Origin: a plasmid
Reading direction: 5' to 3' (one strand)
Length of the DNA: 64,000 nucleotides
Assembly: GCF_988243305.1 (NCBI RefSeq)
Contig: NZ_OZ547138.1
The translations under genes were made by a program, and so were the position numbers. The notes below the pieces were generated by a model. The model saw only the letters and a program-made list of their open reading frames with translations. It had not been told where the DNA came from and did not search any database. Within the stretch, counting starts at the first letter, position 1; the number at the start of each line of letters is the position of its first letter. Positions 3,517 to 56,293 of the stretch are shown in pieces.

Positions 3517-4443
3517 ATGCCAAACTGGTGCTCGAATCGTATGTATTTTTCTGGTGAACCGGCACAGATCGCTGAGATTAAACGACTGGCCAGCGGCGCA
3601 GTCACACCGTTTTATCGCCGCGCCACAAATGAAGGTATTCAGCTGTTTCTGGCCGGAAGTGCCGGACTTCTGCAGACCACTGAAGATGTGCAGTTTGAAC
3701 CGTGCCCCGGACTGACGGCTGCCGGACGTGGTGTTGTATCGCCGGAGAATATCGCGTTCACACGCTGGCTGACACACCTGCAGAACGGTGTGCTACTGGA
3801 TGAACAAAACTGCCTGATGCTGCATGAACTCTGGCTGCAGAGCGGTACTGGACAGCGTCGCTGGGAAGGATTACCGGACGATGTCAGGGATACCATCACC
3901 GCACTTTTCACCGCAAAAAGAGGTGACTGGTGTGGCTTCTGGAGTAACGAGGATGTATCGGTGTGGTGGAACCGTCTGTGTGACAACGTACTGCCGGAAA
4001 AAACCATGCCGTTTGACCTGCTGACGGTTTTGCCGACCCGCCTGGATATTGAAGTGAATGGCTTTAACGGCGGTGTTCTGAACGGTGTTCCTTCTGCATA
4101 TCACTGGTATACAGAACGGTATGGCGTGAAGTGGCCTTGTGGGTATGACCTGAATATCAGCAGTCAGGGGGAAAACTTCATTCAGGTAGATTTCGACACG
4201 CCGTGGTGTCAGCCGGAAAGCGACGTTGTTGCAGAATTAAGCCGCCGTTTCAGCTGCACAATGGAGCACTGGTATGCCGAACAGGGCTGCAATTTCTGTG
4301 GCTGGCAGCGATATGAGCGTGGCGAGCTTGTTGATGTGCTGTGGGGGGAGCTGGAATGGTCTTCCCCGACAGATGACGATGAGCTGCCGGAAGTCACCGG
4401 ACCTGCGTGGATAGTCGACAATGTGGCGCATTATGGCGGATGA
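3517..4443 (+). CDS. Conserved leading-region hypothetical protein (Cys/Trp-rich)
   Basis: ORF with GAGGAG RBS 7 nt upstream of ATG 3517; the longer frame from 3472 lacks an RBS. Confidence 0.5.
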   Translation: MPNWCSNRMYFSGEPAQIAEIKRLASGAVTPFYRRATNEGIQLFLAGSAGLLQTTEDVQFEPCPGLTAAGRGVVSPENIAFTRWLTHLQNGVLLDEQNCLMLHELWLQSGTGQRRWEGLPDDVRDTITALFTAKRGDWCGFWSNEDVSVWWNRLCDNVLPEKTMPFDLLTVLPTRLDIEVNGFNGGVLNGVPSAYHWYTERYGVKWPCGYDLNISSQGENFIQVDFDTPWCQPESDVVAELSRRFSCTMEHWYAEQGCNFCGWQRYERGELVDVLWGELEWSSPTDDDELPEVTGPAWIVDNVAHYGG

Positions 4444-4455
4444 AGTATGACGGAG

Positions 4456-4485
4456 ACGGGCGGGCAACCGCCCGTTTCTTTTCCG
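4456..4485 (+). terminator. Rho-independent terminator candidate
   Basis: Hairpin ACGGGCGGG-caac-CGCCCGT followed by TTCTTTTCC. Confidence 0.5.
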
Positions 4486-4827
4486 GTAAAGGATGTCGCC
4501 GGGCTCCTCTTTTTACTGCGCCGGCTGACGCGGCGCGGCAGGAACGCTGCCTGTGGTCAGTGTCCCGCGTCCGGTGGGCACGGGACGGGCGCTTTTACCG
4601 CTCCCGGCTGGCACCGGTGACAGTGTACGCCAGCCCGTCGCCCTTTTCTGATGAACGCCCTTCAAGCCGCTTTCGCGGCATAGCCTTGCCGTCAGAAAGA
4701 CGACGGCTGCGGTATTCCACGGTCGGCCTGACCCGTTACCGGACGCGGTGAACAGCCCACAGGCAGCGGGGAACGGGCACCACAGGGGTGCCCTCCCGGT
4801 GTCCTCTGTAAGAGAAGGAGCGTTGTT

Positions 4828-5511
4828 ATGTCCCGTTTTGTCCTCGGTAACTGCATCGATGTTATGGCCCGTATTCCTGATAACGCCATTGATTTCATAC
4901 TGACTGACCCGCCGTACCTCGTCGGTTTTCGTGACCGTTTCGGGCGCACCATCGCTGGCGATAAAACCGATGAATGGCTGCAACCGGCCTGTAATGAAAT
5001 GTACCGCGTACTCAAAAAAGACGCGCTGATGGTGAGCTTCTACGGCTGGAACCGCGTCGATCGCTTTATGGCCGCCTGGAAAAATGCGGGATTCAGCGTT
5101 GTTGGTCACCTGGTCTTCACCAAAAACTACACATCGAAGGCCGCATATGTGGGCTATCGCCACGAATGCGCCTACATCCTGGCAAAAGGCCGTCCACGTC
5201 TGCCACAAAACCCGCTGCCGGACGTGCTGGGCTGGAAATATTCGGGCAATCGTCATCACCCGACGGAAAAGCCCGTTACCAGCCTGCAACCGCTGATTGA
5301 GAGCTTCACACACCCGAACGCAATTGTGCTGGACCCGTTTGCAGGCAGCGGCTCAACCTGCGTCGCTGCCCTCCAGTCCGGACGCCGGTATATCGGTATC
5401 GAGCTGCTTGAGCAGTATCACCGTGCCGGGCAGCAACGCCTTGCCGCCGTGCAACGGGCCATGCAGCAGGGGGCCGCGAATGATGACTGGTTTATGCCGG
5501 AGGCTGCGTAA
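4828..5511 (+). CDS. Orphan N6-adenine DNA methyltransferase (beta-class, DPPY motif)
   Basis: Motif LTDPPYL near the N-terminus and FAGSGST near the C-terminus; no adjacent restriction endonuclease gene. Confidence 0.8.
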   Translation: MSRFVLGNCIDVMARIPDNAIDFILTDPPYLVGFRDRFGRTIAGDKTDEWLQPACNEMYRVLKKDALMVSFYGWNRVDRFMAAWKNAGFSVVGHLVFTKNYTSKAAYVGYRHECAYILAKGRPRLPQNPLPDVLGWKYSGNRHHPTEKPVTSLQPLIESFTHPNAIVLDPFAGSGSTCVAALQSGRRYIGIELLEQYHRAGQQRLAAVQRAMQQGAANDDWFMPEAA

Positions 5512-5733
5512 ATGAACTATGCCGGACACGAAAAACTGCGCGCCGACGTGGCGGAGGTGGCCAATGCCATGTGCGACCTGCGTACAACCATGAATGAGAT
5601 GGAGCAGCGGTACAGCTTTAATGCCGACACCCTGCCGGAACGTCTGGTGCGTCAGACGCTGTTTCGCGCAAACCGCCTCCTGATGGAGGCATATACCGAA
5701 ATTCTTGAACTGGATGCGTGCTTCAAAGATTAA
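5512..5733 (+). CDS. Small hypothetical protein, translationally coupled to the methyltransferase
   Basis: Start codon overlaps the methylase stop (TAAATG); 73 aa. Confidence 0.35.
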   Translation: MNYAGHEKLRADVAEVANAMCDLRTTMNEMEQRYSFNADTLPERLVRQTLFRANRLLMEAYTEILELDACFKD

Positions 5734-5745
5734 GGAGGAGACGAA

Positions 5746-6180
5746 ATGTACGGAACATGCGAAACGCTCTGCCGTGAGCTGGCAGCAAAGTATCCGGGAA
5801 ACACGCCGCTGATGCTGCTTATCTGGTCCCCGGAAGAGATTCAGGCCCTCGCTGACGGAATGGATATTTCTCTGTCCGATCATGAAATCAGAACCGTCCT
5901 GGCGCGCCTGGAGGACATCCCGGAAGACCAGCGGACTGAATCCGGTATTTCTTCCGGTGCGGCGATGGAGATTATCAATAACGTGAGAGAAAACCGCCAG
6001 GTGACCGTCCCTGCTGAACTGCTGGCGTCCCTGATTCAGACCGCCGAACAGGCACTGTGGAAACGTGAGTGGGCCGCCCGTGATAACGGCCTCGCCGTCC
6101 CGGAATGCGTCACCCGCCGACAGGCGGTGGTTAATCAGGCCCGCGCCCTGCTGAAAAACAACACACGCGAAAACGACTGA
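5746..6180 (+). CDS. Hypothetical leading-region protein; paralog of the ORF at 7881-8303
   Basis: 144 aa; GGAG RBS; shares motif R..VTVPA..L and acidic character with 7881-8303. Confidence 0.5.
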   Translation: MYGTCETLCRELAAKYPGNTPLMLLIWSPEEIQALADGMDISLSDHEIRTVLARLEDIPEDQRTESGISSGAAMEIINNVRENRQVTVPAELLASLIQTAEQALWKREWAARDNGLAVPECVTRRQAVVNQARALLKNNTREND

Positions 6181-6224
6181 TGTTATCGCCGCCTGCGGGC
6201 GGCGATTCAGGGAGACCATGAATC

Positions 6225-6995
6225 ATGAACGAAACGCTGAATGCACTGATTTATCGCCACGCCAGCAACCTGCTGCTGGCGCAGGGCTGGCCGGAAGAGA
6301 CGGATGTTGACCAGCGTAATCCGAAGTATCCGGGCTGGATCAGCATTTACGTGCGGCTGGATGTGCCCCGGCTGGCGACGTTACTTATCAACCGTCACGG
6401 CGGCGTACTGCCGCCGCTCCTGGCCTCCGCCATTCAGAAACTGACCGGAACCGGGGCGGAACTGGTACTGTCCGGCAGTCAGTGGCAGTCGCTGCCGGTA
6501 CTTCCGGCAGACGGAACACAGGTGTTTTTCCCGTATGCCGGAGAATGGCTGACCGAAGACGAAATCAGGGCAGTTCTTGATGCAGTGCGCAATGCAGTAC
6601 GAAGCATCTGTTACCAAGTGGCAGAAGATGCCCGGCGTATCCGGGCGGCGCTGACCACCACCGGTCAGACGTTGCTGACCCGCCAGACGCGCCGCTTTCG
6701 TCTGGTTGTGAAGGAAAGCGATTACCCCTGCTGGCTTGATGAAGATGACGAAAATCTGCCCGTGGTGCTCGATGCCATTCTGAACCGTGGCGCTCGTTTT
6801 TCGTCGGTGGAAATGTATCTGGTCAGTGAGTGTGTGGAGCATATCCTGTCCAGTGGGCTGGCCTGCGATGTGCTGCGTATACCTGATGAACCGTCCCGTC
6901 GCTGGTTTGACCGGGATATTCTGCGGGAGGTGGTCCTGGAAGCCCGGACTGAAATCCGCAGCATGGCGGATGCACTGGCGAAAATCCGGAAATGA
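6225..6995 (+). CDS. Hypothetical leading-region protein
   Basis: 256-aa ORF in the same orientation as neighbours. Confidence 0.45.
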
Positions 6996-7051
6996 TGACG
7001 CTGGCGGGGAAAATCTCCGCCTTTTCCAGCCGGTCCCCGGAAAGAGCAAAA

Positions 7052-7390
7052 GGATGTCGCCGCAGGCTCCGCTTTACCCGGCCATGCGGGGCATGGCCTT
7101 GTGGGTTTTCAGTTATGTGGCCTCAGCGTCGTGTGCGGGCTGTGCCGTGCCTCCATCGTAGCCGGGCTTCTGCGGGCGGGTTGCAAGGTAAGGTGAACCG
7201 CTGCGGTCACCCGGTCCCTCCTTCCCGTCTGCCGTGATTTTCCGGTCGTTCACCCGCTCAGATTTCGCGGTCTCACCCTCCAACTCCCGTCAGCCGTGCG
7301 CGTCAGGCTGCGGCTTCCCTTGCGCCCTTGCAACCCTGCAGGTCCGGCAAAGATGGAGGCACGGCACCGCCCGGTGTCGCGGAATATGTG
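7052..7390. repeat. Structured GC-rich repeat, family A copy 1 (ssi/Frpo-like candidate single-strand promoter) upstream of klcA
   Basis: About 340 bp near-identical to 14001-14340; both end just upstream of an antirestriction gene start. Confidence 0.6.
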
Positions 7391-7408
7391 AACAACGGAG
7401 GAAATCCC

Positions 7409-7880: not shown

Positions 7881-8303
7881 ATGTACTGTACTGTTAAAGA
7901 AATCATCCGCGATGTACTGGATACAGACGTGCCGGACAGTGAATGCGTTTTTGCCGTGGTGCTGACCCGTGGGGATGTGCGTCACATAGCCCAGGACTGG
8001 AACCTGTCAGACGATGAGCTGGAAACCGTCATGCAGCGACTGGACGATGCCTTTGAGCATGGTGCGGATGTCAGCGTTGTTCACGACGTTGTTCGTGAAC
8101 TGATGGAAGAAAAGCGCGCCAGCCGTCATGTGACAGTCCCGGCGGTGATGCTGGAAAAAGTGATGGCGCTGGCAGGCAGTGAAATGAAGCGCCTGTATGC
8201 CGTCGGGAGTGAGAACGGGGGCGACGGTGACGCATTCGTCAGGGAGGAACGCGAAGCAATGGACGTTGTGTTACAGGCGCTGGACGGGGAGACGATGTCA
8301 TGA
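7881..8303 (+). CDS. Hypothetical leading-region protein; paralog of the ORF at 5746-6180
   Basis: 140 aa; related to 5746-6180. Confidence 0.5.
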   Translation: MYCTVKEIIRDVLDTDVPDSECVFAVVLTRGDVRHIAQDWNLSDDELETVMQRLDDAFEHGADVSVVHDVVRELMEEKRASRHVTVPAVMLEKVMALAGSEMKRLYAVGSENGGDGDAFVREEREAMDVVLQALDGETMS

Positions 8304-8693: not shown

Positions 8694-9200
8694 ACTTCGG
8701 CTCCCGGCTGCCTGGCGGCATCCGGTCGTCAGGCCCGACTCCGACGGGCAGCTGCTGGCGCACCCGCCAGTCTCCGCCGAACCCGCTGGCGCGGTTTCGG
8801 GCTGCCGCTACGGTCCGATGCGTGAAAACCCGGCTTGCAGCGACCGTTCCGGTCGCGCCGCCCCTGTCGCGCCGTGACCTGCGCTCCCTGCACACCTGAC
8901 GGTGTGTGAGGAAACTGCGCCTGATGGCGCAGCAGTCCTCCCTCCTGCCGCCACTCCTGCGGCCTGTTTCCCGCTGTGGACTTTCCGGGGGGCAGACGTA
9001 ACCCCCTCCCGTTCCATCTGTCCAGGGTGAGATGCACCGGCCACAAAATTTTTAGCCATGAACCCGGCAAAAAATTTTGCGTCCGCCCCCGGACAGCTGC
9101 CCCGTGAGGCGGTAAACGGGCCCCCATCGGAAAGGTCCACTGCGGGGAGAAAACCCTGTGAAGTGGACGGCAGGAGGAGCTTTCGCTCCTCTGAAGGGGC
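8694..9200. repeat. Structured GC-rich repeat, family B copy 1 (ssi/Frpo-like) upstream of ssb
   Basis: About 500 bp homologous to 15041-15545 and, in part, 18071-18395. Confidence 0.6.
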
Positions 9201-9260
9201 ACATGAACGTCCCGTCGCCGGTATCCGGTTTATCTCACATCTTTCAGTCAGGAGGTTCTT

Positions 9261-9788
9261 ATGAGTGCACGTGGTATCAACAAGGTCATCCTCGTCGGGC
9301 GTCTGGGCAATGATCCGGAGGTCCGTTACATCCCCAACGGGGGCGCAGTGGCAAACCTGCAGGTGGCCACGTCAGAAAGCTGGCGCGACAAACAGACGGG
9401 GGAGATGCGGGAGCAGACGGAATGGCACCGCGTGGTGCTGTTCGGCAAGCTCGCGGAAGTGGCAGGTGAATATCTGCGCAAGGGCGCGCAGGTCTACATC
9501 GAGGGGCAACTCCGTACCCGTAGCTGGGAAGATAACGGTATCACCCGTTACGTCACTGAAATTCTTGTTAAGACCACGGGCACCATGCAGATGCTGGGGA
9601 GTGCACCACAGCAGAACGCTCAGGCGCAACCGAAGCCTCAGCAGTACGGCCAGCCACAGAGTGCTGACGCAACGAAAAAAGGGAGCGCGAAAACGAAAGG
9701 CCGTGGACGTAAGGCTGCGCAGCCGGAGCCTCAGCCGCAACCGCCGGAGGGTGAGGATTACTGGTTTTCAGACGATATCCCGTTCTGA
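9261..9788 (+). CDS. ssb: Plasmid single-stranded DNA-binding protein
   Basis: 175 aa, N-terminal OB-fold sequence [19 protein letters not shown], Gln/Pro-rich linker, acidic tail DDIPF. Confidence 0.95.
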
Positions 9789-19714: not shown

Positions 19715-19769
19715 TGGCACTTTCTCTCTGTTTTATGTTGAAGCCTGATTTTATCACCAAAACTGCCTC

Positions 19770-19935
19770 CTGGCAGGGCTGCGCCCTGCCTCTGCCGTCT
19801 GCATAAGACTATGATGCACAAAAATAACAGGCTATAATTGACCGAAAAACGGGACAGGATGTGGGAATGTCGGACCGCGCACGCGCACTCAGACATTCCC
19901 CACCTGGTCAGGGCTTTGCCCCGACACCCCGGTAA
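19770..19935 (-). other. oriT: Origin of transfer (oriT) region with inverted repeats; nick predicted on the minus strand
   Basis: Intergenic region immediately upstream of nikA-nikB; inverted repeats GGCAGGGC-tgc-GCCCTGCC (19783-19801) and GGAATGTC...GACATTCC (19864-19900); sequence resembles my recollection of the R64 nick region. Confidence 0.5.
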
Positions 19936-19945
19936 GGAGCAGACC

Positions 19946-20278
19946 ATGAGTGAGAAGAAAACCCGAACGGGCAGTGAGAACAGGAAGAGAATTGTAAAAT
20001 TCACGGCGAGATTCACGGAGGATGAGGCTGAAATCGTAAGAGAAAAAGCGGAGTCAAGTGGACAGACGGTTTCAACATTTATACGAAGTTCTTCACTGGA
20101 TAAGGTGGTTAACTGCCGTACTGACGACCGTATGATTGATGAGATTATGCGTCTTGGCCGCCTTCAGAAGCATCTGTTTGTGGAGGGAAAACGCACTGGT
20201 GATAAGGAGTATGCAGAGGTTCTTGTTGCCATTACTGAATATGTCAATGCTCTGCGAAGAGACTTAATGGGACGCTGA
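19946..20278 (+). CDS. nikA: Relaxosome accessory protein NikA (RHH, oriT binding)
   Basis: 110 aa MSEKKTRTGSENRKRIVKFTARFTEDEAEIV with AAGGAG RBS; directly upstream of the relaxase. Confidence 0.9.
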   Translation: MSEKKTRTGSENRKRIVKFTARFTEDEAEIVREKAESSGQTVSTFIRSSSLDKVVNCRTDDRMIDEIMRLGRLQKHLFVEGKRTGDKEYAEVLVAITEYVNALRRDLMGR

Positions 20279-20289
20279 GATAACTGCTG

Positions 20290-23001
20290 ATGAATGCCAT
20301 TATTCCGCACAAAAGACGTGACGGCAGGTCTTCCTTTGAAGACCTGATTGCGTACACGTCTGTGCGGGATGATGTGCAGGAAAATGAGCTCACAGAAGAC
20401 AGCGAAATCAAGAGTGATGTCCCTCACCGCAACCGTTTCAGACGGCTTGTTGATTATGCAACACGCCTGCGTAACGAAAAATTTGTCTCCCTGATTGATG
20501 TGATGAAGGACGGCAGTCAGTGGGTAAATTTCTATGGCGTAACCTGTTTCCATAACTGCAATTCACTGGAAACAGCTGCTGAAGAGATGCAGTACAAGGC
20601 GGACAAAGCTGTTTTTTCCCGTAATGATACAGACCCCGTTTTCCACTACATTCTTTCCTGGCCTGCGCATGAAAGCCCGCGTCCTGAGCAGCTTTTTGAC
20701 TGTGTGCGTCACACACTGAAATCTCTTGAACTCTCAAAACATCAGTACGTGGCTGCCGTTCATACGGACACGGATAATCTGCATGTGCATGTTGCCGTGA
20801 ATCGTGTACATCCTGAAACTGGTTATATTAACTGGCTTTCCTGGAGCCAGGAAAAACTCAGCCGTGCATGTCGTGAACTTGAACTTAAGCACGGATTCGC
20901 GCCTGATAATGGCTGCTTTGTGCATGCACCCGGCAACCGTATTGTGCGCAAAACAGCGCTGGTACGTGAGCGCCGTAATGCCTGGCGACGCGGGAAAAAG
21001 CAGACGTTCAGGGAATATATTGCGCAGATGTCGATTGCCGGGCTGCGTGAAGAGCCCGCACAAGACTGGTTGTCTTTGCATAAACGGCTGGCCAGTGATG
21101 GTCTGTATATCACGATGCAGGAAGGGGAACTGGTGGTGAAGGATGGCTGGGACAGAGCGCGGGAAGGTGTTGCACTCAGTTCGTTCGGACCGTCATGGAC
21201 AGCTGAAAAACTGGGGCGGAAACTGGGGGAATATCAGCCTGTACCGACAGATATTTTCAGTCAGGTGGGGACACCCGGTCGTTATGATCCGGAAGCCATA
21301 AACGTTGATATCCGGCCGGAAAAAGTGGCAGAAACGGAGAGTCTGAAACAGTACGCCTGCCGTCATTTTGCCGAACGCTTACCGGAAATGGCGAGAAATG
21401 GTGAGCTGGAAAGTTGCCTGGATGTGCACAGAACTCTGGCAAAGGCTGGATTATGGATGGGGATCCAGCACGGGCATCTGGTACTGCATGATGGATTTGA
21501 TAAACAACAGACACCAGTACGTGCAGACAGTGTGTGGCCGTTAATGACGCTGGATTATATGCAGGATCTGGATGGTGGATGGCAGCCTGTACCGAAGGAT
21601 ATTTTTACTCAGGTTATACCCGGAGAACGATTCCGGGGACGTAATCTTGGTACTCAGGCTGTCAGTGATTACGAATGGTATCGTATTCGGATGGGGACAG
21701 GTCCACAGGGAGCAATAAAGCGCGAACTGTTTTCCGATAAGGAAAGTCTGTGGGGGTACACGACTGTTCAGTGTGAGTCGTTGATTGAAGATATGATCGC
21801 GGGCGGGAATTTCAGCTGGCAGGCGTGCCATGAGATGTTTGCGCGTAAAGGGCTTATGTTGCAGAAACAGCATCATGGTCTTGTGATTGTGGATGCGTTT
21901 AATCATGAGCTCACACCAGTGAAGGCCAGCAGTATCCACCCGGATTTGACGTTATCCAGGGCTGAGCCGCAGGCAGGGCCATTTGAGATTGCAGGTGCAG
22001 ATATATTTGAACGGGTGAAGCCTGAATGTCGCTACAATCCGGAACTTGCTGCCAGCGATGAAGTGGAGCTCGGCTTCCGGCGCGATCCTGTACTGCGTCG
22101 TGAACGCCGTGAAGCCCGTGCAGCTGCGCGGGAAGATTTGCGCGCGCGTTATCTTGCATGGAAGGAGCACTGGCGTAAACCCGACTTACGTTACGGAGAA
22201 CGGTTACGGGAAATTCATGCTGCCTGCCGTCGGCGCAAGGCGTATATCCGTGTGCAGTTCCGGGATCCACAATTGCGTAAGCTGCATTACCATATTGCAG
22301 AAGTGCAGCGTATGCAGGCGCTGATCAGGCTGAAGGAGAGTGTGAAGGAAGAGCGGTTGTCACTGATTGCGGAGGGTAAGTGGTATCCTTTGTCCTACCG
22401 GCAGTGGGTGGAGCAACAGGCGGTACAGGGAGACAGAGCTGCATTATCACAGTTACGTGGCTGGGATTATCGTGATCGTCGCAAAGACAAGCGACGAACA
22501 ACGAATGCCGACCGCTGCGTGATTCTCTGTGAACCGGGAGGAACTCCACTTTATGAAGACACTGGCGTTCTCGAAGCCCGTCTGCAGAAAGATGGCAGTG
22601 TGCGTTTTCGTGATCGGAGGAATGGCGAGTTAGTCTGTGTGGATTATGGGGACCGTGTGGTGTTCTACCATCATCAGGACAGAAATGAACTGGTGGATAA
22701 GCTGAATCTGATTGCTCCTGTATTGTTTGATCGTGAGCCAAGAATGGGTTTTGAACCGGAAGGCTCATATCAACAGTTTAATGATGTATTTGCGGAAATG
22801 GTGGCCTGGCATAATGCAGCTGGAATAACCGGAAGTGGACACTTTGTAATCAGCCGCCCGGATGTGGATTTACATCGTCAGCGTAGTGAACAGTACTACC
22901 ACGAATATATCAGGCAACAGAAAAGCATATCCGGGGGGCATGGCGCATCTTATGCTCCAGTTCAGGATAATGAGTGGACGCCACCATCACCTGGAATGTA
23001 G
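20290..23001 (+). CDS. nikB: MOBP-family relaxase NikB
   Basis: 903-aa ORF with relaxase histidine motif HVHVAVNRVHPETG; nikA-nikB organisation typical of IncI-complex plasmids. Confidence 0.9.
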   Translation: MNAIIPHKRRDGRSSFEDLIAYTSVRDDVQENELTEDSEIKSDVPHRNRFRRLVDYATRLRNEKFVSLIDVMKDGSQWVNFYGVTCFHNCNSLETAAEEMQYKADKAVFSRNDTDPVFHYILSWPAHESPRPEQLFDCVRHTLKSLELSKHQYVAAVHTDTDNLHVHVAVNRVHPETGYINWLSWSQEKLSRACRELELKHGFAPDNGCFVHAPGNRIVRKTALVRERRNAWRRGKKQTFREYIAQMSIAGLREEPAQDWLSLHKRLASDGLYITMQEGELVVKDGWDRAREGVALSSFGPSWTAEKLGRKLGEYQPVPTDIFSQVGTPGRYDPEAINVDIRPEKVAETESLKQYACRHFAERLPEMARNGELESCLDVHRTLAKAGLWMGIQHGHLVLHDGFDKQQTPVRADSVWPLMTLDYMQDLDGGWQPVPKDIFTQVIPGERFRGRNLGTQAVSDYEWYRIRMGTGPQGAIKRELFSDKESLWGYTTVQCESLIEDMIAGGNFSWQACHEMFARKGLMLQKQHHGLVIVDAFNHELTPVKASSIHPDLTLSRAEPQAGPFEIAGADIFERVKPECRYNPELAASDEVELGFRRDPVLRRERREARAAAREDLRARYLAWKEHWRKPDLRYGERLREIHAACRRRKAYIRVQFRDPQLRKLHYHIAEVQRMQALIRLKESVKEERLSLIAEGKWYPLSYRQWVEQQAVQGDRAALSQLRGWDYRDRRKDKRRTTNADRCVILCEPGGTPLYEDTGVLEARLQKDGSVRFRDRRNGELVCVDYGDRVVFYHHQDRNELVDKLNLIAPVLFDREPRMGFEPEGSYQQFNDVFAEMVAWHNAAGITGSGHFVISRPDVDLHRQRSEQYYHEYIRQQKSISGGHGASYAPVQDNEWTPPSPGM

Positions 23002-53857: not shown

Positions 53858-54962
53858 TGTGATACTCCTCGCTATCTGTTGCTTTCAGGAAGAGGCGAAC
53901 GGAAGTGGCGTCTTTCAGGATGCCGGACGGCAGGTGCCAGCCGGTATCTGATAACACCCAGGGGGTTCCGCCAAAACCGAACTGGCGGAAAGCCTGGTTA
54001 TTGACATCGATGGCAGCACGTGCGGCGGTCAGACACTGTCCATCCTGTGCGGCCGGTGCATCGCCGGTGGGGGCCATACCACTGTCAGCGGAATACAGCT
54101 GATGCCATCCGGTCGCCCGTTTTTGTGAGTCCGGTTCACACAGCAGCGGAGCAGTCCGCTTTGTACTGGACTCCCCGCCAATCACGGAGACCGGATAAAT
54201 CACCACGCTGAATTCCCGGGCCAGTTGCTTAAGCGCGGGTTCCAGCAGACGGCAGTTGATGCATGCGGGGTCAAGGAAGGCGTACAGCGTGCGTTCATGA
54301 CCAGTGGACAGGTTAATGGTGAACATCCCCCGGTCTGCGTTGCGTTTAAGTACTGTGGCCAGATTACGGCGGGCCTCAGCGGCCTGAACGTGTTGTTCTT
54401 CCGTCACTGCCGTCGGGGCGGGGGCAGAAGAAGGTTCCTGCTGTGTGGGAGCCGGGCGGGCCGGGATGCTGTTAACATGATGTTCCGTATGTGGGCGTGG
54501 TGTCTCTGTGTCGGTTACTGGTTCAGCTCTCCATTCCTGAGATGTAGGGTAAGCCAGCGTGGAAGGGGGCTCTGCCTTCATCCAGTGGTAACCTGCAACT
54601 GTCGCCGGCAGAGCAATTCCGGCGATAAAGCCACACATCAGTGTCCGCCAGAAGCCATTTTTCCGGGAGGGATGTTTTCCTTTTCCGGCATATTCGGCAT
54701 CCAGGCAGGCATCAATCGCTGAGAGCATTCTGCCGATGTGATGTCCGGGACGTTCTGCATCAACGGTATCAACAAGCACCGTTTCGGTTATTTCGCGAAA
54801 AGGGGAACTGAAGGACAGGTGCATCAGCCTGTTATTACGGTTAATCAGTGCGCCCAGTTCTGTGACTGGCAGGATGGCAATCACCTCCCGATTACCGTCA
54901 GGGTACAGGGCGATCAGGGACAGGTGTTTATTATTCAGTGTTGCAGTGTAGTGGATGGTCAT
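53838..54962 (-). CDS. trbB: Conjugal transfer protein TrbB (thioredoxin-like, CxxC)
   Basis: 374 aa with CINC motif, Pro/Thr-rich linker and a transmembrane segment. Confidence 0.7.
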   Translation of the reverse strand: MTIHYTATLNNKHLSLIALYPDGNREVIAILPVTELGALINRNNRLMHLSFSSPFREITETVLVDTVDAERPGHHIGRMLSAIDACLDAEYAGKGKHPSRKNGFWRTLMCGFIAGIALPATVAGYHWMKAEPPSTLAYPTSQEWRAEPVTDTETPRPHTEHHVNSIPARPAPTQQEPSSAPAPTAVTEEQHVQAAEARRNLATVLKRNADRGMFTINLSTGHERTLYAFLDPACINCRLLEPALKQLAREFSVVIYPVSVIGGESSTKRTAPLLCEPDSQKRATGWHQLYSADSGMAPTGDAPAAQDGQCLTAARAAIDVNNQAFRQFGFGGTPWVLSDTGWHLPSGILKDATSVRLFLKATDSEEYHNEPAPR

Positions 54963-56293
54963 TGTTCTTTTTCCTTGTCGGCGGGATGCTGTTTTTCGGT
55001 GGTTTCGGTGGTTTCGGTGGTTTCGGTGGTTTCGGTGGTTTCGGTGGTTTCGGTGGTTTCGGTGGTTTCGGTGGTTTCACCAGTGTCAGTGTCTTCGTCG
55101 TTATCATGGCGGCGGGGTATCACGTCATCCGTGAGTGACCAGCGGGTCCTGATCTGACGTTTACGATCGCGATCTGGCTGAGGTTCGTCCCATATCAGGC
55201 CCAGCCCCAGCATGTCCCGTCGAAGCCCTTCAATGGCCTCTTCCACACAGGGTTCCGGGCAGGGGAGGCCGAGACGGCTGGCTTCATTTTCTGCCCGGGC
55301 AACGGCCACCACGCCGGCCCCTTCGATGAAGCCTTTTGTGGTGTTTGCCCGGTGAAGGGCATAGAAGAGCGTCCGGTCAACGCCCTTGAGCCACAGCCAG
55401 TTCGGAGGCGTCAGGCGCAAATCATGTGCGTAAAGCCAGACCAGACCGCTGCGAACGTAACGGTGCTGCCTGAGCCACTGTTGTGCGCCTTCTGTTTTGA
55501 TGACCCGGATAAAGGCGTTTCTGGCCAGTGAATACACCGGCGTGCTGAAACGCCCCTGGTCCCGTTTACTTTTGAGCCTGCAGGAGAGATTGAGGTTGTT
55601 CATCAGGGCTACCGCTGCTTTCCGGTCACCGAGGAAGAACTGCAGGCCAAAGATGGCAAAGAGCGCTTTTTCATGTGGGGCCATGTCTTTCCAGCTGGTC
55701 AGTGGTTGCCCCAGTTGCGCCATGAAGCACTGGCGTGTGGACGCAACATCGAGCTGCATGTTGCGGATAAGGTTGTTCTGCTCCACAAAGACTTCGGGGG
55801 TTAGTGCGACACGGCGCTCGGGACGTTTTTGTCCGTGGAAGAGTCTGTTGTTGTCTCCATCAGCCAGAACGGGGGCGATCGCCGGTGACAGAGCTGAAAA
55901 AATATGGGGCAGTGTGTGGATATTCAGTGGCCTGCGGGTAAAACGGGGCTGGGCCGGATGGTGAAACCACATCCACAGAAAGCCGAATGTCATGGGAAGC
56001 AGAATCAACCAGAGGATCCCCACTGTCCGGGACATAACATCCAGCCACTGGCCGAAAGTGATGGTTGCCGCGTTGTTAGCAGTGATGGCCAGCAGGTTGT
56101 AACGGGGGGCGGCAAAGTTGTGAAAGGGCCCCCAGTCAATCATGCCCCACAGTGTGTGCAGGATCAGGCAGGAGGCGAAGACGATTTCAGGTAAAAAGCG
56201 CCAGATGATAATCGCAAAGAGCAGGCATATGGCACCGACGATATACCATATAGCCATTGGATCTTCGGCGGCAGACGTCTGTTGGTAAGACAC
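54959..56293 (-). CDS. trbA: Conjugal transfer membrane protein TrbA with C-terminal TET tandem repeat
   Basis: 444-aa polytopic membrane protein, first gene of the trb operon; C-terminus GETTETTETTETTETTETTETTETTE. Confidence 0.7.
   Translation of the reverse strand: MSYQQTSAAEDPMAIWYIVGAICLLFAIIIWRFLPEIVFASCLILHTLWGMIDWGPFHNFAAPRYNLLAITANNAATITFGQWLDVMSRTVGILWLILLPMTFGFLWMWFHHPAQPRFTRRPLNIHTLPHIFSALSPAIAPVLADGDNNRLFHGQKRPERRVALTPEVFVEQNNLIRNMQLDVASTRQCFMAQLGQPLTSWKDMAPHEKALFAIFGLQFFLGDRKAAVALMNNLNLSCRLKSKRDQGRFSTPVYSLARNAFIRVIKTEGAQQWLRQHRYVRSGLVWLYAHDLRLTPPNWLWLKGVDRTLFYALHRANTTKGFIEGAGVVAVARAENEASRLGLPCPEPCVEEAIEGLRRDMLGLGLIWDEPQPDRDRKRQIRTRWSLTDDVIPRRHDNDEDTDTGETTETTETTETTETTETTETTETTETTEKQHPADKEKEQ
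54994..55080. repeat. Tandem 9-bp repeat (GGTTTCGGT, about 9.5 copies) within the 3' end of trbA
   Basis: Perfect tandem repeats read directly; encode the (TTE)n tract on the minus strand. Confidence 0.85.

Follow-up and report, generated by a model that had tools for sequence, protein, structure and literature searches.

An M.EcoGIX-type orphan methylase and the small gene yubE, predicted to be translationally coupled, in the leading region of an IncI-gamma/K1 conjugative plasmid

The plasmid DNA analysed here (64,000 nucleotides, hereafter the window) carries in its leading region an orphan adenine methyltransferase gene that is recognisable, from its sequence and surroundings, as an allele of the already published M.EcoGIX system, followed directly by a 73-codon gene, yubE, whose translation appears to depend on signals lying within the methylase gene. 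We consider it highly probable that the two form an ecoGIXM-yubE leading-region module, in which methylation of the entering strand would be driven from a hairpin promoter and YubE would act as a separate factor. The present analysis supplies for this explanation the identity to M.EcoGIX, the neighbouring genes, the fold of the hairpin and the junction, and the methylation chemistry, the protection from restriction and the promoter come from published work on the 95%-identical enzyme. The interpretation given in a preliminary description of this DNA is supported, and it is already published for M.EcoGIX.

Results

The plasmid and its leading region

In a comparison with PLSDB the window showed 100% identity to the E. 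coli plasmid p1-S1-KEN-03-A (NZ_CP145695.1), which is typed there as conjugative, IncI-gamma/K1, MOBP and MPF_I; by this match the window is an IncI-gamma/K1 conjugative plasmid, within the IncI complex. The features discussed below, and the order of the genes around the methylase, are collected in Table 1. The leading region holds two DUF1380 paralogs, one after yubE and one after klcA (7881-8303), and this family accompanies YubE in almost all of the plasmid contexts examined. Just beyond nikB, a resistance island (approximately 24000-50700) splits the IncI transfer backbone; its genes include IS26, mph(A)-mrx-mphR, chrA, TnAs1, tet(A), strAB and sul2, together with a class 1 integron (dfrA17-aadA5-qacEdelta1-sul1).

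Table 1. Features of the methylase-yubE locus and its surroundings (window coordinates unless another sequence is named).
Feature	Coordinates	Strand	Basis or remark
impCAB (umuDC-like)		-	first in the gene order around the methylase
DUF1281, then ~380-nt GC-rich gap, then methylase		+	gene order
Large GC-rich hairpin	4450..4800	- (transferred)	ssDNA fold and likeness to pESBL
Orphan beta-class N6-adenine DNA methyltransferase	4828..5511	+	227 aa; allele of M.EcoGIX / YubD / YfeA (F) / YfbB (R64)
M.EcoGIX	54782-55465 of pESBL-EA11, NC_018659.1		reference protein for the 216/227 identity
Shine-Dalgarno GGAGG for yubE	5500..5504	+	within the methylase C-terminal P-E-A-A codons; 8 nt upstream
yubE, two-helix hairpin	5512..5733	+	73 aa; PF27407 YubE, phrog_4830; pESBL 'Hp9'; N15 gp50
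DUF1380 protein (pESBL Hp10)	5746..6180	+	PF07128, E 3.6e-54; order as in pESBL and F
256-aa hypothetical (pESBL 'YchA'/Hp11)	6225..6995	+	ORF list; synteny with pESBL
Methylase, 73-aa ORF, DUF1380, 256-aa hypothetical		+	gene order, in series
klcA/ardB, DUF1380, ssb, parB-like, psiB, psiA, ardA, then nikA, nikB			gene order, after the 256-aa hypothetical
oriT region	19720..19945	-	nick core ATCCTG|T 19860-19854; inverted repeat 19864-19902
nikA	19946-20278		directly downstream of the oriT region; PF21983
nikB relaxase	20290-23001		after nikA; PF03432

The direction of transfer could be read from the oriT region. In the nikA-proximal intergenic sequence the minus strand carries CACATCCTG|TCCCG at 19863-19850, beside an inverted repeat, and we take ATCCTG|T within it to be the nick core, following the RP4/R64 oriT consensus. 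A nick core on the minus strand makes this the transferred strand, and thereby the template for ardA, psiB, ssb and the methylase gene, which are all on the plus strand. The methylase gene lies 14.3-15.0 kb from the nick, with the promoter hairpin entering just after it. The placement of the gene in the leading region, proposed in the preliminary description, therefore holds: nikA and nikB occupy 19946-23001, the nick core is on the minus strand, and the methylase is encoded on the plus strand like ssb, psiB and ardA.

The methylase and its relation to M.EcoGIX

Both open reading frames described earlier, one of 227 aa (4828-5511) and one of 73 aa (5512-5733), each on the plus strand, were confirmed. 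The longer product matches PF01555 (N6_N4_Mtase) over residues 21-201 with an E value of 1.2e-40 and 140.3 bits (cut-off 26.7), and NCBIfam NF010253 with 500.1 bits (cut-off 244). In its translation motif IV (DPPY, aa 27-30) stands ahead of motif I (DPFAGSGST, aa 169-177), and this N-terminal position of DPPY corresponds to the beta-class order of motifs. Over its full length the protein is identical to M.EcoGIX at 216 of 227 residues (95%), which, together with the two family matches and the motif order, upholds its assignment to the beta-class adenine methyltransferases. The enzyme had also been described as lacking a restriction partner. This agrees with its neighbours within about 4 kb (DUF1281, YubE, DUF1380, the 256-aa hypothetical protein, KlcA/ArdB, DUF1380 and SSB), among which no endonuclease gene was annotated or detected, the 256-aa hypothetical being a protein for which searches of Pfam and NCBIfam gave no match, and so conceivably a nuclease of a new kind. 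The gene for this last protein is the final one ahead of the next hairpin and klcA.

M.EcoGIX is encoded by pESBL, from E. coli O104:H4. Its likeness to the window enzyme extends to the length of 227 aa, the beta-class motif order and the neighbours on both sides, as well as to an upstream hairpin that is approximately 98% identical and an identical junction, TAA directly followed by ATG, with a 73-aa gene. The two loci differ in their replicons, M.EcoGIX being found on an IncI1 plasmid and the window allele on an IncI-gamma/K1 plasmid. The same family comprises YfeA of F, YfbB of R64 and 'YubD', and the 1.8-kb segment is present at 90% nucleotide identity or more on at least 5000 PLSDB plasmids.

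The residues that distinguish the window enzyme from M.EcoGIX are not evenly spread: 10 of the 11 differences are clustered in aa 75-128, a stretch (window ~5050-5215) in which the allele matches that of the F plasmid. The gene looks mosaic, as if by recombination, perhaps in the part that recognises the target, and the clustered differences could shift its site preference relative to M.EcoGIX. Many synonymous changes relative to M.EcoGIX are also concentrated at window ~5050-5215.

Contigs carrying the methylase or the methylase-yubE pair, with 71-100% protein identity to the window methylase, were also encountered in assemblies of unexpected taxa (L017, L020, L026, L040, L046 and L060), labelled as Collinsella, Oscillibacter, Streptomyces morookaense, Oscillospiraceae and Bacillus pumilus. 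These most likely reflect enterobacterial plasmid contamination or mis-binning.

Published function of M.EcoGIX

The function of this enzyme family has been studied in pESBL. Yamaichi et al. found that deletion of M.EcoGIX leaves maintenance of the plasmid and its transfer to permissive K-12 intact, and that without it transfer into EcoRI or EcoGIII recipients falls up to ~1000-fold (PMC4288162). [quoted passage not shown] In the same study EcoKMrr restricted plasmids expressing M.EcoGIX alone 10-10,000-fold, pESBL was protected only with the native orientation of oriT, protection being lost on inversion, and activity was lost on purification, PolI being invoked in the context of an unidentified cofactor (PMC7736820). 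Work from 2025 showed that the operon is strongly induced in transconjugants and mapped its transcription start by 5' RACE to the upstream hairpin, which was named a class 3 single-strand promoter (PMC12672017). Orphan methylases more generally are among the most enriched families of leading regions (Samuel et al.; PMC11541004). The preliminary description suggested methylome sequencing to define a target motif; such a methylome is already published for M.EcoGIX.

Single-strand hairpins ahead of leading-region genes

Folded as single-stranded DNA, the minus strand of 4440-4830 reaches -110.2 kcal/mol (z -7.2), and none of 100 shuffled sequences was as stable. This region is approximately 98% identical to the pESBL sequence upstream of ecoGIXM, and by this likeness the hairpin would correspond to the published class 3 ssDNA promoter of the M.EcoGIX operon, a distinct class without sequence similarity to Frpo/ssi (PMC12672017). 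A sigma-70 scan of 4300-7400 gave no duplex promoter (0 matches), a relaxed search for -35/-10 pairs on both strands of the methylase hairpin gave no match of at least 8/12, and an Rfam scan returned only a sub-threshold match to Erse (20.5 bits against 138). Two further GC-rich intergenic regions form large ssDNA hairpins on the minus strand, one upstream of klcA/ardB (6996-7400, z -4.5) and one upstream of ssb (8880-9262, z -9.6), and these are consistent with the single-strand promoters published as class 2 and class 1 (Frpo/ssi), respectively. Frpo and ssi of F and ColIb-P9 are, as in the window, long hairpins of the transferred strand situated upstream of leading-region genes. The DUF1380 gene that comes next after yubE on the same strand is probably a member of the same early operon.

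RefSeq annotates a 103-aa 'hypothetical protein' (WP_012615291.1, 4440-4751, plus strand) wholly within the promoter hairpin; this is probably a spurious call, with an Arg-rich, low-complexity translation.

The methylase-yubE junction

The stop codon of the methylase (TAA, 5509-5511) is directly followed by the start codon of yubE (ATG, 5512-5514). The two frames thus adjoin with a 0-nt overlap, and the overlap of the small frame with the methylase stop that had been described earlier is not borne out. To place this junction among its relatives, methylase homologues were scanned in one genome per GTDB species (80 loci) and their flanks were searched with a YubE profile. Junctions in 37 relatives consisted of a 1-nt overlap (27), 0 nt (4), a 4-nt overlap (3) or a gap of 18-28 nt (3), so that 34 of the 37 are tight (-4 to 0 nt). 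CCGGAGGC lies 8-9 nt before the YubE ATG in 33 of these 34 tight-junction relatives, its place being taken by CCAGAGGC in the other, and the relatives with gapped junctions have a shorter methylase that lacks the PEAA tail. A tight stop/start with its Shine-Dalgarno sequence inside the methylase gene, recurring in 34/37 relatives, is what would be expected of translational coupling as suggested in the preliminary description, and we regard this coupling as a conserved design, as predicted from the junctions.

In 38 of 45 Enterobacterales-type loci (methylase at least 65% identical) YubE came directly after the methylase, and it was beside none of the 28 distant methylase homologues (51-58% identity, mostly alphaproteobacterial). 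The small ORFs that follow the methylase in Aeromonas and in a Pseudomonadota MAG gave no significant match to YubE. Individual loci depart from the common arrangement: in Citrobacter amalonaticus (L024, 3681-4055) codons 1-11 of yubE are joined in a fusion with an unrelated frame of 124 aa, and in Edwardsiella hoshinae (L038, 3681-3739) yubE is deleted and DUF1380 comes directly after the methylase.

YubE as a protein family

The 73-aa protein is 99% identical to Hp9 of pESBL and matches phrog_4830 over positions 1-73 of 73 (E 2e-34). The label PF27407 is a precomputed annotation present on all homologues and the name yubE comes from the source annotation; the copies of Pfam and NCBIfam that were searched gave no match, that copy of Pfam being one without the PF27407 model. 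When 1.8 billion representative proteins were searched with a profile, 127 representatives of the YubE family were found. Of the divergent members 24 were retrieved at near full length; these are 72-74 aa long, mostly exactly 73, a length that is kept down to ~30% identity. Family members share the motifs MNYxGxExLR, ERLAGQ (ERLVRQ in the window protein) and ELDxxFKD, and their pairwise dN/dS of 0.05-0.29 indicates purifying selection. The AlphaFold2 model (pLDDT 91.8) consists of two helices, 7-32 and 41-72. Foldseek found only generic helical hairpins in the PDB (best E ~1), and a profile-based comparison with PDB sequences drew only coiled-coil noise. The literature searched contained no functional study of yubE, yfeB, PF27407 or N15 gp50; the name 'yfeB' is also in use, without any relation to YubE, in the gonococcal island.

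We give next to no credence to the idea that the 73-aa frame arose by chance in GC-rich DNA, or that the real gene here is an antisense one. Long antisense frames do exist on the minus strand, at 4513-5313 (266 aa) and 5353-6219 (288 aa), and the absence of a match in the local Pfam and NCBIfam copies could be read in the same sense; however, the fixed length and motifs down to 30% identity, the low dN/dS, the phrog_4830 match and the confident fold all speak for a gene, and the antisense frames were rejected, being broken or absent in relatives. Judged by its conservation, then, the 73-aa ORF is a real gene, and what the preliminary description had listed as unexplained is a member of a named but uncharacterised family.

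Divergence of YubE and its homologues in phages

YubE diverges far faster than the methylase: in one pair, for example, the methylases are 90% identical and the YubE proteins 34%. Identities of the two proteins are correlated with an r of 0.55, and pairs with methylases at least 95% identical can have YubE as low as 42%. Compared with F, yubE forms a local trough of 80% nucleotide identity between flanks of 94% on both sides, and compared with more distant plasmids everything other than the methylase has diverged. A swapped yubE cassette, a reading that this supports only weakly, was set aside.

YubE homologues also occur in phages. N15 gp50 (33% identity, E 7e-6) and phiKO2 Gp50 (32% identity, E 1e-4) have the same length as the window protein and belong to the same PHROG. 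In both, a PF01555 methylase (gp52), a different and larger enzyme, lies 0.5-0.7 kb downstream of gp50, so that the YubE homologue precedes the methylase, whereas in the plasmids YubE comes after it. A promoter and a terminator stand between gp50 and the methylase; a small winged-helix protein, gp51, is paired with gp50 and follows it, and a toxin-antitoxin pair adjoins. Pairing of a YubE homologue with a winged-helix protein of about 75 aa (phrog_331) recurs in N15-like phage-plasmids and prophages, where the two genes lie divergently beside a RelE/HTH or HicAB toxin-antitoxin pair; N15 genes 50-51 correspond to L014 4001-4459, with like contexts in phiKO2 (L015), L003, L005, L006 and L010. 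This seems to be a second conserved context of YubE, apparently unstudied. One prophage copy of YubE had no methylase within 4 kb.

A linker-fusion AlphaFold2 model of methylase and YubE, computed with a shallow paired alignment of 22 rows and without PAE or a control, gave a pTM of 0.58, which is close to the value that we roughly estimated for two undocked domains. The pLDDT of YubE fell from 92 to about 80 in this model, with the same shallow 22-row alignment.

Discussion

Taken with the published work on M.EcoGIX, our observations suggest the following course of events. During conjugation the minus strand would be led into the recipient by its 5' end, starting at the nick (~19854), and about 15 kb later the GC-rich sequence at 4450-4800 would arrive and fold, as ssDNA, into a long hairpin. 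RNA polymerase would use this hairpin as a promoter before the complementary strand is made, giving transcripts that cover the methylase and yubE and, probably, the two genes after them. The methylase would mark single-stranded DNA with m6A at the loose SAY context, such that on duplex formation many restriction sites would be hemimethylated and escape cleavage, and conversion of the hairpin to duplex would silence the operon. YubE would be made from the methylase mRNA through the abutting stop and start codons and the Shine-Dalgarno sequence in the methylase tail.

What YubE would contribute to this process is a matter of weighing several lines of evidence. We suggest that YubE probably acts separately from the methylase, as a small factor of early establishment or anti-defence, and is not a subunit on which the enzyme depends. 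The activity of the methylase cloned alone (PMC7736820) and the wider methylase family, which does without YubE, argue against an obligatory subunit; that it is separable is indicated by the N15-like phage contexts and by its faster divergence. The conserved coupling and the PF01555 methylases near YubE in phages keep a link between the two alive, and since coupling is typical of proteins acting together, a physical or regulatory link may still exist. Existing genetic data on the small gene come from the pESBL transposon screen, in which Hp9 (YubE) was dispensable for maintenance and transfer, with an unrestricting K-12 strain as the only recipient (PMC4288162). If, as may be the case, the delta-GIX::gent allele used in the published work has a polar effect on yubE, part of its phenotype could in principle belong to YubE.

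Three other readings of the locus were weighed. The wording of the preliminary description, pre-methylation as an anti-restriction measure, implies that the methylase acts on the plasmid while this is still in the donor. This is the simple reading of a plasmid orphan methylase and is compatible with the sequence alone, yet we hold it to be very improbable, as no duplex sigma-70 promoter lies upstream, M.EcoGIX is silent in its native host, donors are unmodified, and inversion of oriT abolishes protection (PMC7736820). Of the earlier proposal, the anti-restriction role thus stands, by the 95% identity to M.EcoGIX, and the timing does not, methylation being expected on the entering strand in the recipient, with the donor silent. 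A tentative place has to be kept for YubE as a stoichiometric partner or regulator of the methylase, with the coupling setting a fixed proportion of the two proteins; such a partner could limit toxicity, target the methylase to ssDNA, PolI or SSB, or stabilise it. This would suit the tight junction and the conserved Shine-Dalgarno sequence in the methylase tail, the presence of YubE after the methylase in most Enterobacterales-type loci, the PF01555 methylase found no more than 0.7 kb from YubE in N15, in phiKO2 and in the metagenomic phage contigs L003 and L005, and the loss of activity of purified M.EcoGIX, for which PolI was invoked (PMC7736820). Against a partner stand methylation in vivo by the methylase cloned alone (PMC7736820), the methylase homologues outside Enterobacterales that lack YubE, the YubE copy without a methylase in a prophage and the placing of the N15 methylase in a late operon of its own, beyond a promoter and a terminator, as well as the loose tie between the identities of the two proteins and the fusion model, which with its 22-row alignment is a weak test.

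YubE could instead offset a cost of the promiscuous methylation, for example by blocking methylation-dependent restriction (Type IV, Mrr-like), to which the entering m6A-marked plasmid would be exposed, or by countering some other sensor of the host, a role that we consider rather unlikely. The restriction by EcoKMrr of plasmids that express M.EcoGIX alone (PMC7736820) would give such a protein its purpose, and YubE, as predicted from the junction, would be co-expressed at the very moment of methylation. In being small, acidic, fast-evolving and mosaic the protein moreover resembles many anti-defence proteins, and it occurs near methylases in N15-like phages. The proposal is, however, purely inferential; Pfam, NCBIfam, Foldseek against the PDB and the PDB profile search gave no sequence or fold similarity to known anti-restriction proteins, and the prophage copy of YubE has no methylase nearby. 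If true, it would explain the conserved weld to the methylase, the recurrence near phage methylases and the fast evolution. The weight that is left beyond a partner of the methylase and an antagonist of Mrr-like restriction goes to an independent early-establishment role of YubE of another kind.

Other plasmids and phages offer points of comparison for the methylase. M.EcoGIX has one characterised counterpart with single-strand-specific m6A activity at SAY, M.BceJIII of the Burkholderia plasmid pBCA072 (PMC7736820), which, as described, is likewise beta-class and plasmid-borne; a YubE partner is not expected beside M.BceJIII, since YubE homologues were found only in elements of Enterobacterales and their phages. 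The strategy of self-methylation against host restriction, with no cognate endonuclease, is shared with the orphan methyltransferases of phages. These phage enzymes (Dam-like and multispecific ones, for example) act on duplex DNA at defined sites, unlike the M.EcoGIX family, which acts on single strands, in a very loose context and only shortly after entry.

Among the leading-region genes of IncF and IncI plasmids, through which antibiotic resistance spreads, the methylase is one of the commonest, and its segment is present on at least 5000 PLSDB plasmids. Its part in the evasion of restriction has been established before, and to this the window contributes one more allele only. YubE is carried by thousands of resistance plasmids and is predicted to be expressed in the first minutes after entry into a new host, and the candidate roles at stake for it are those of a new anti-defence factor or of a modulator of the methylase.
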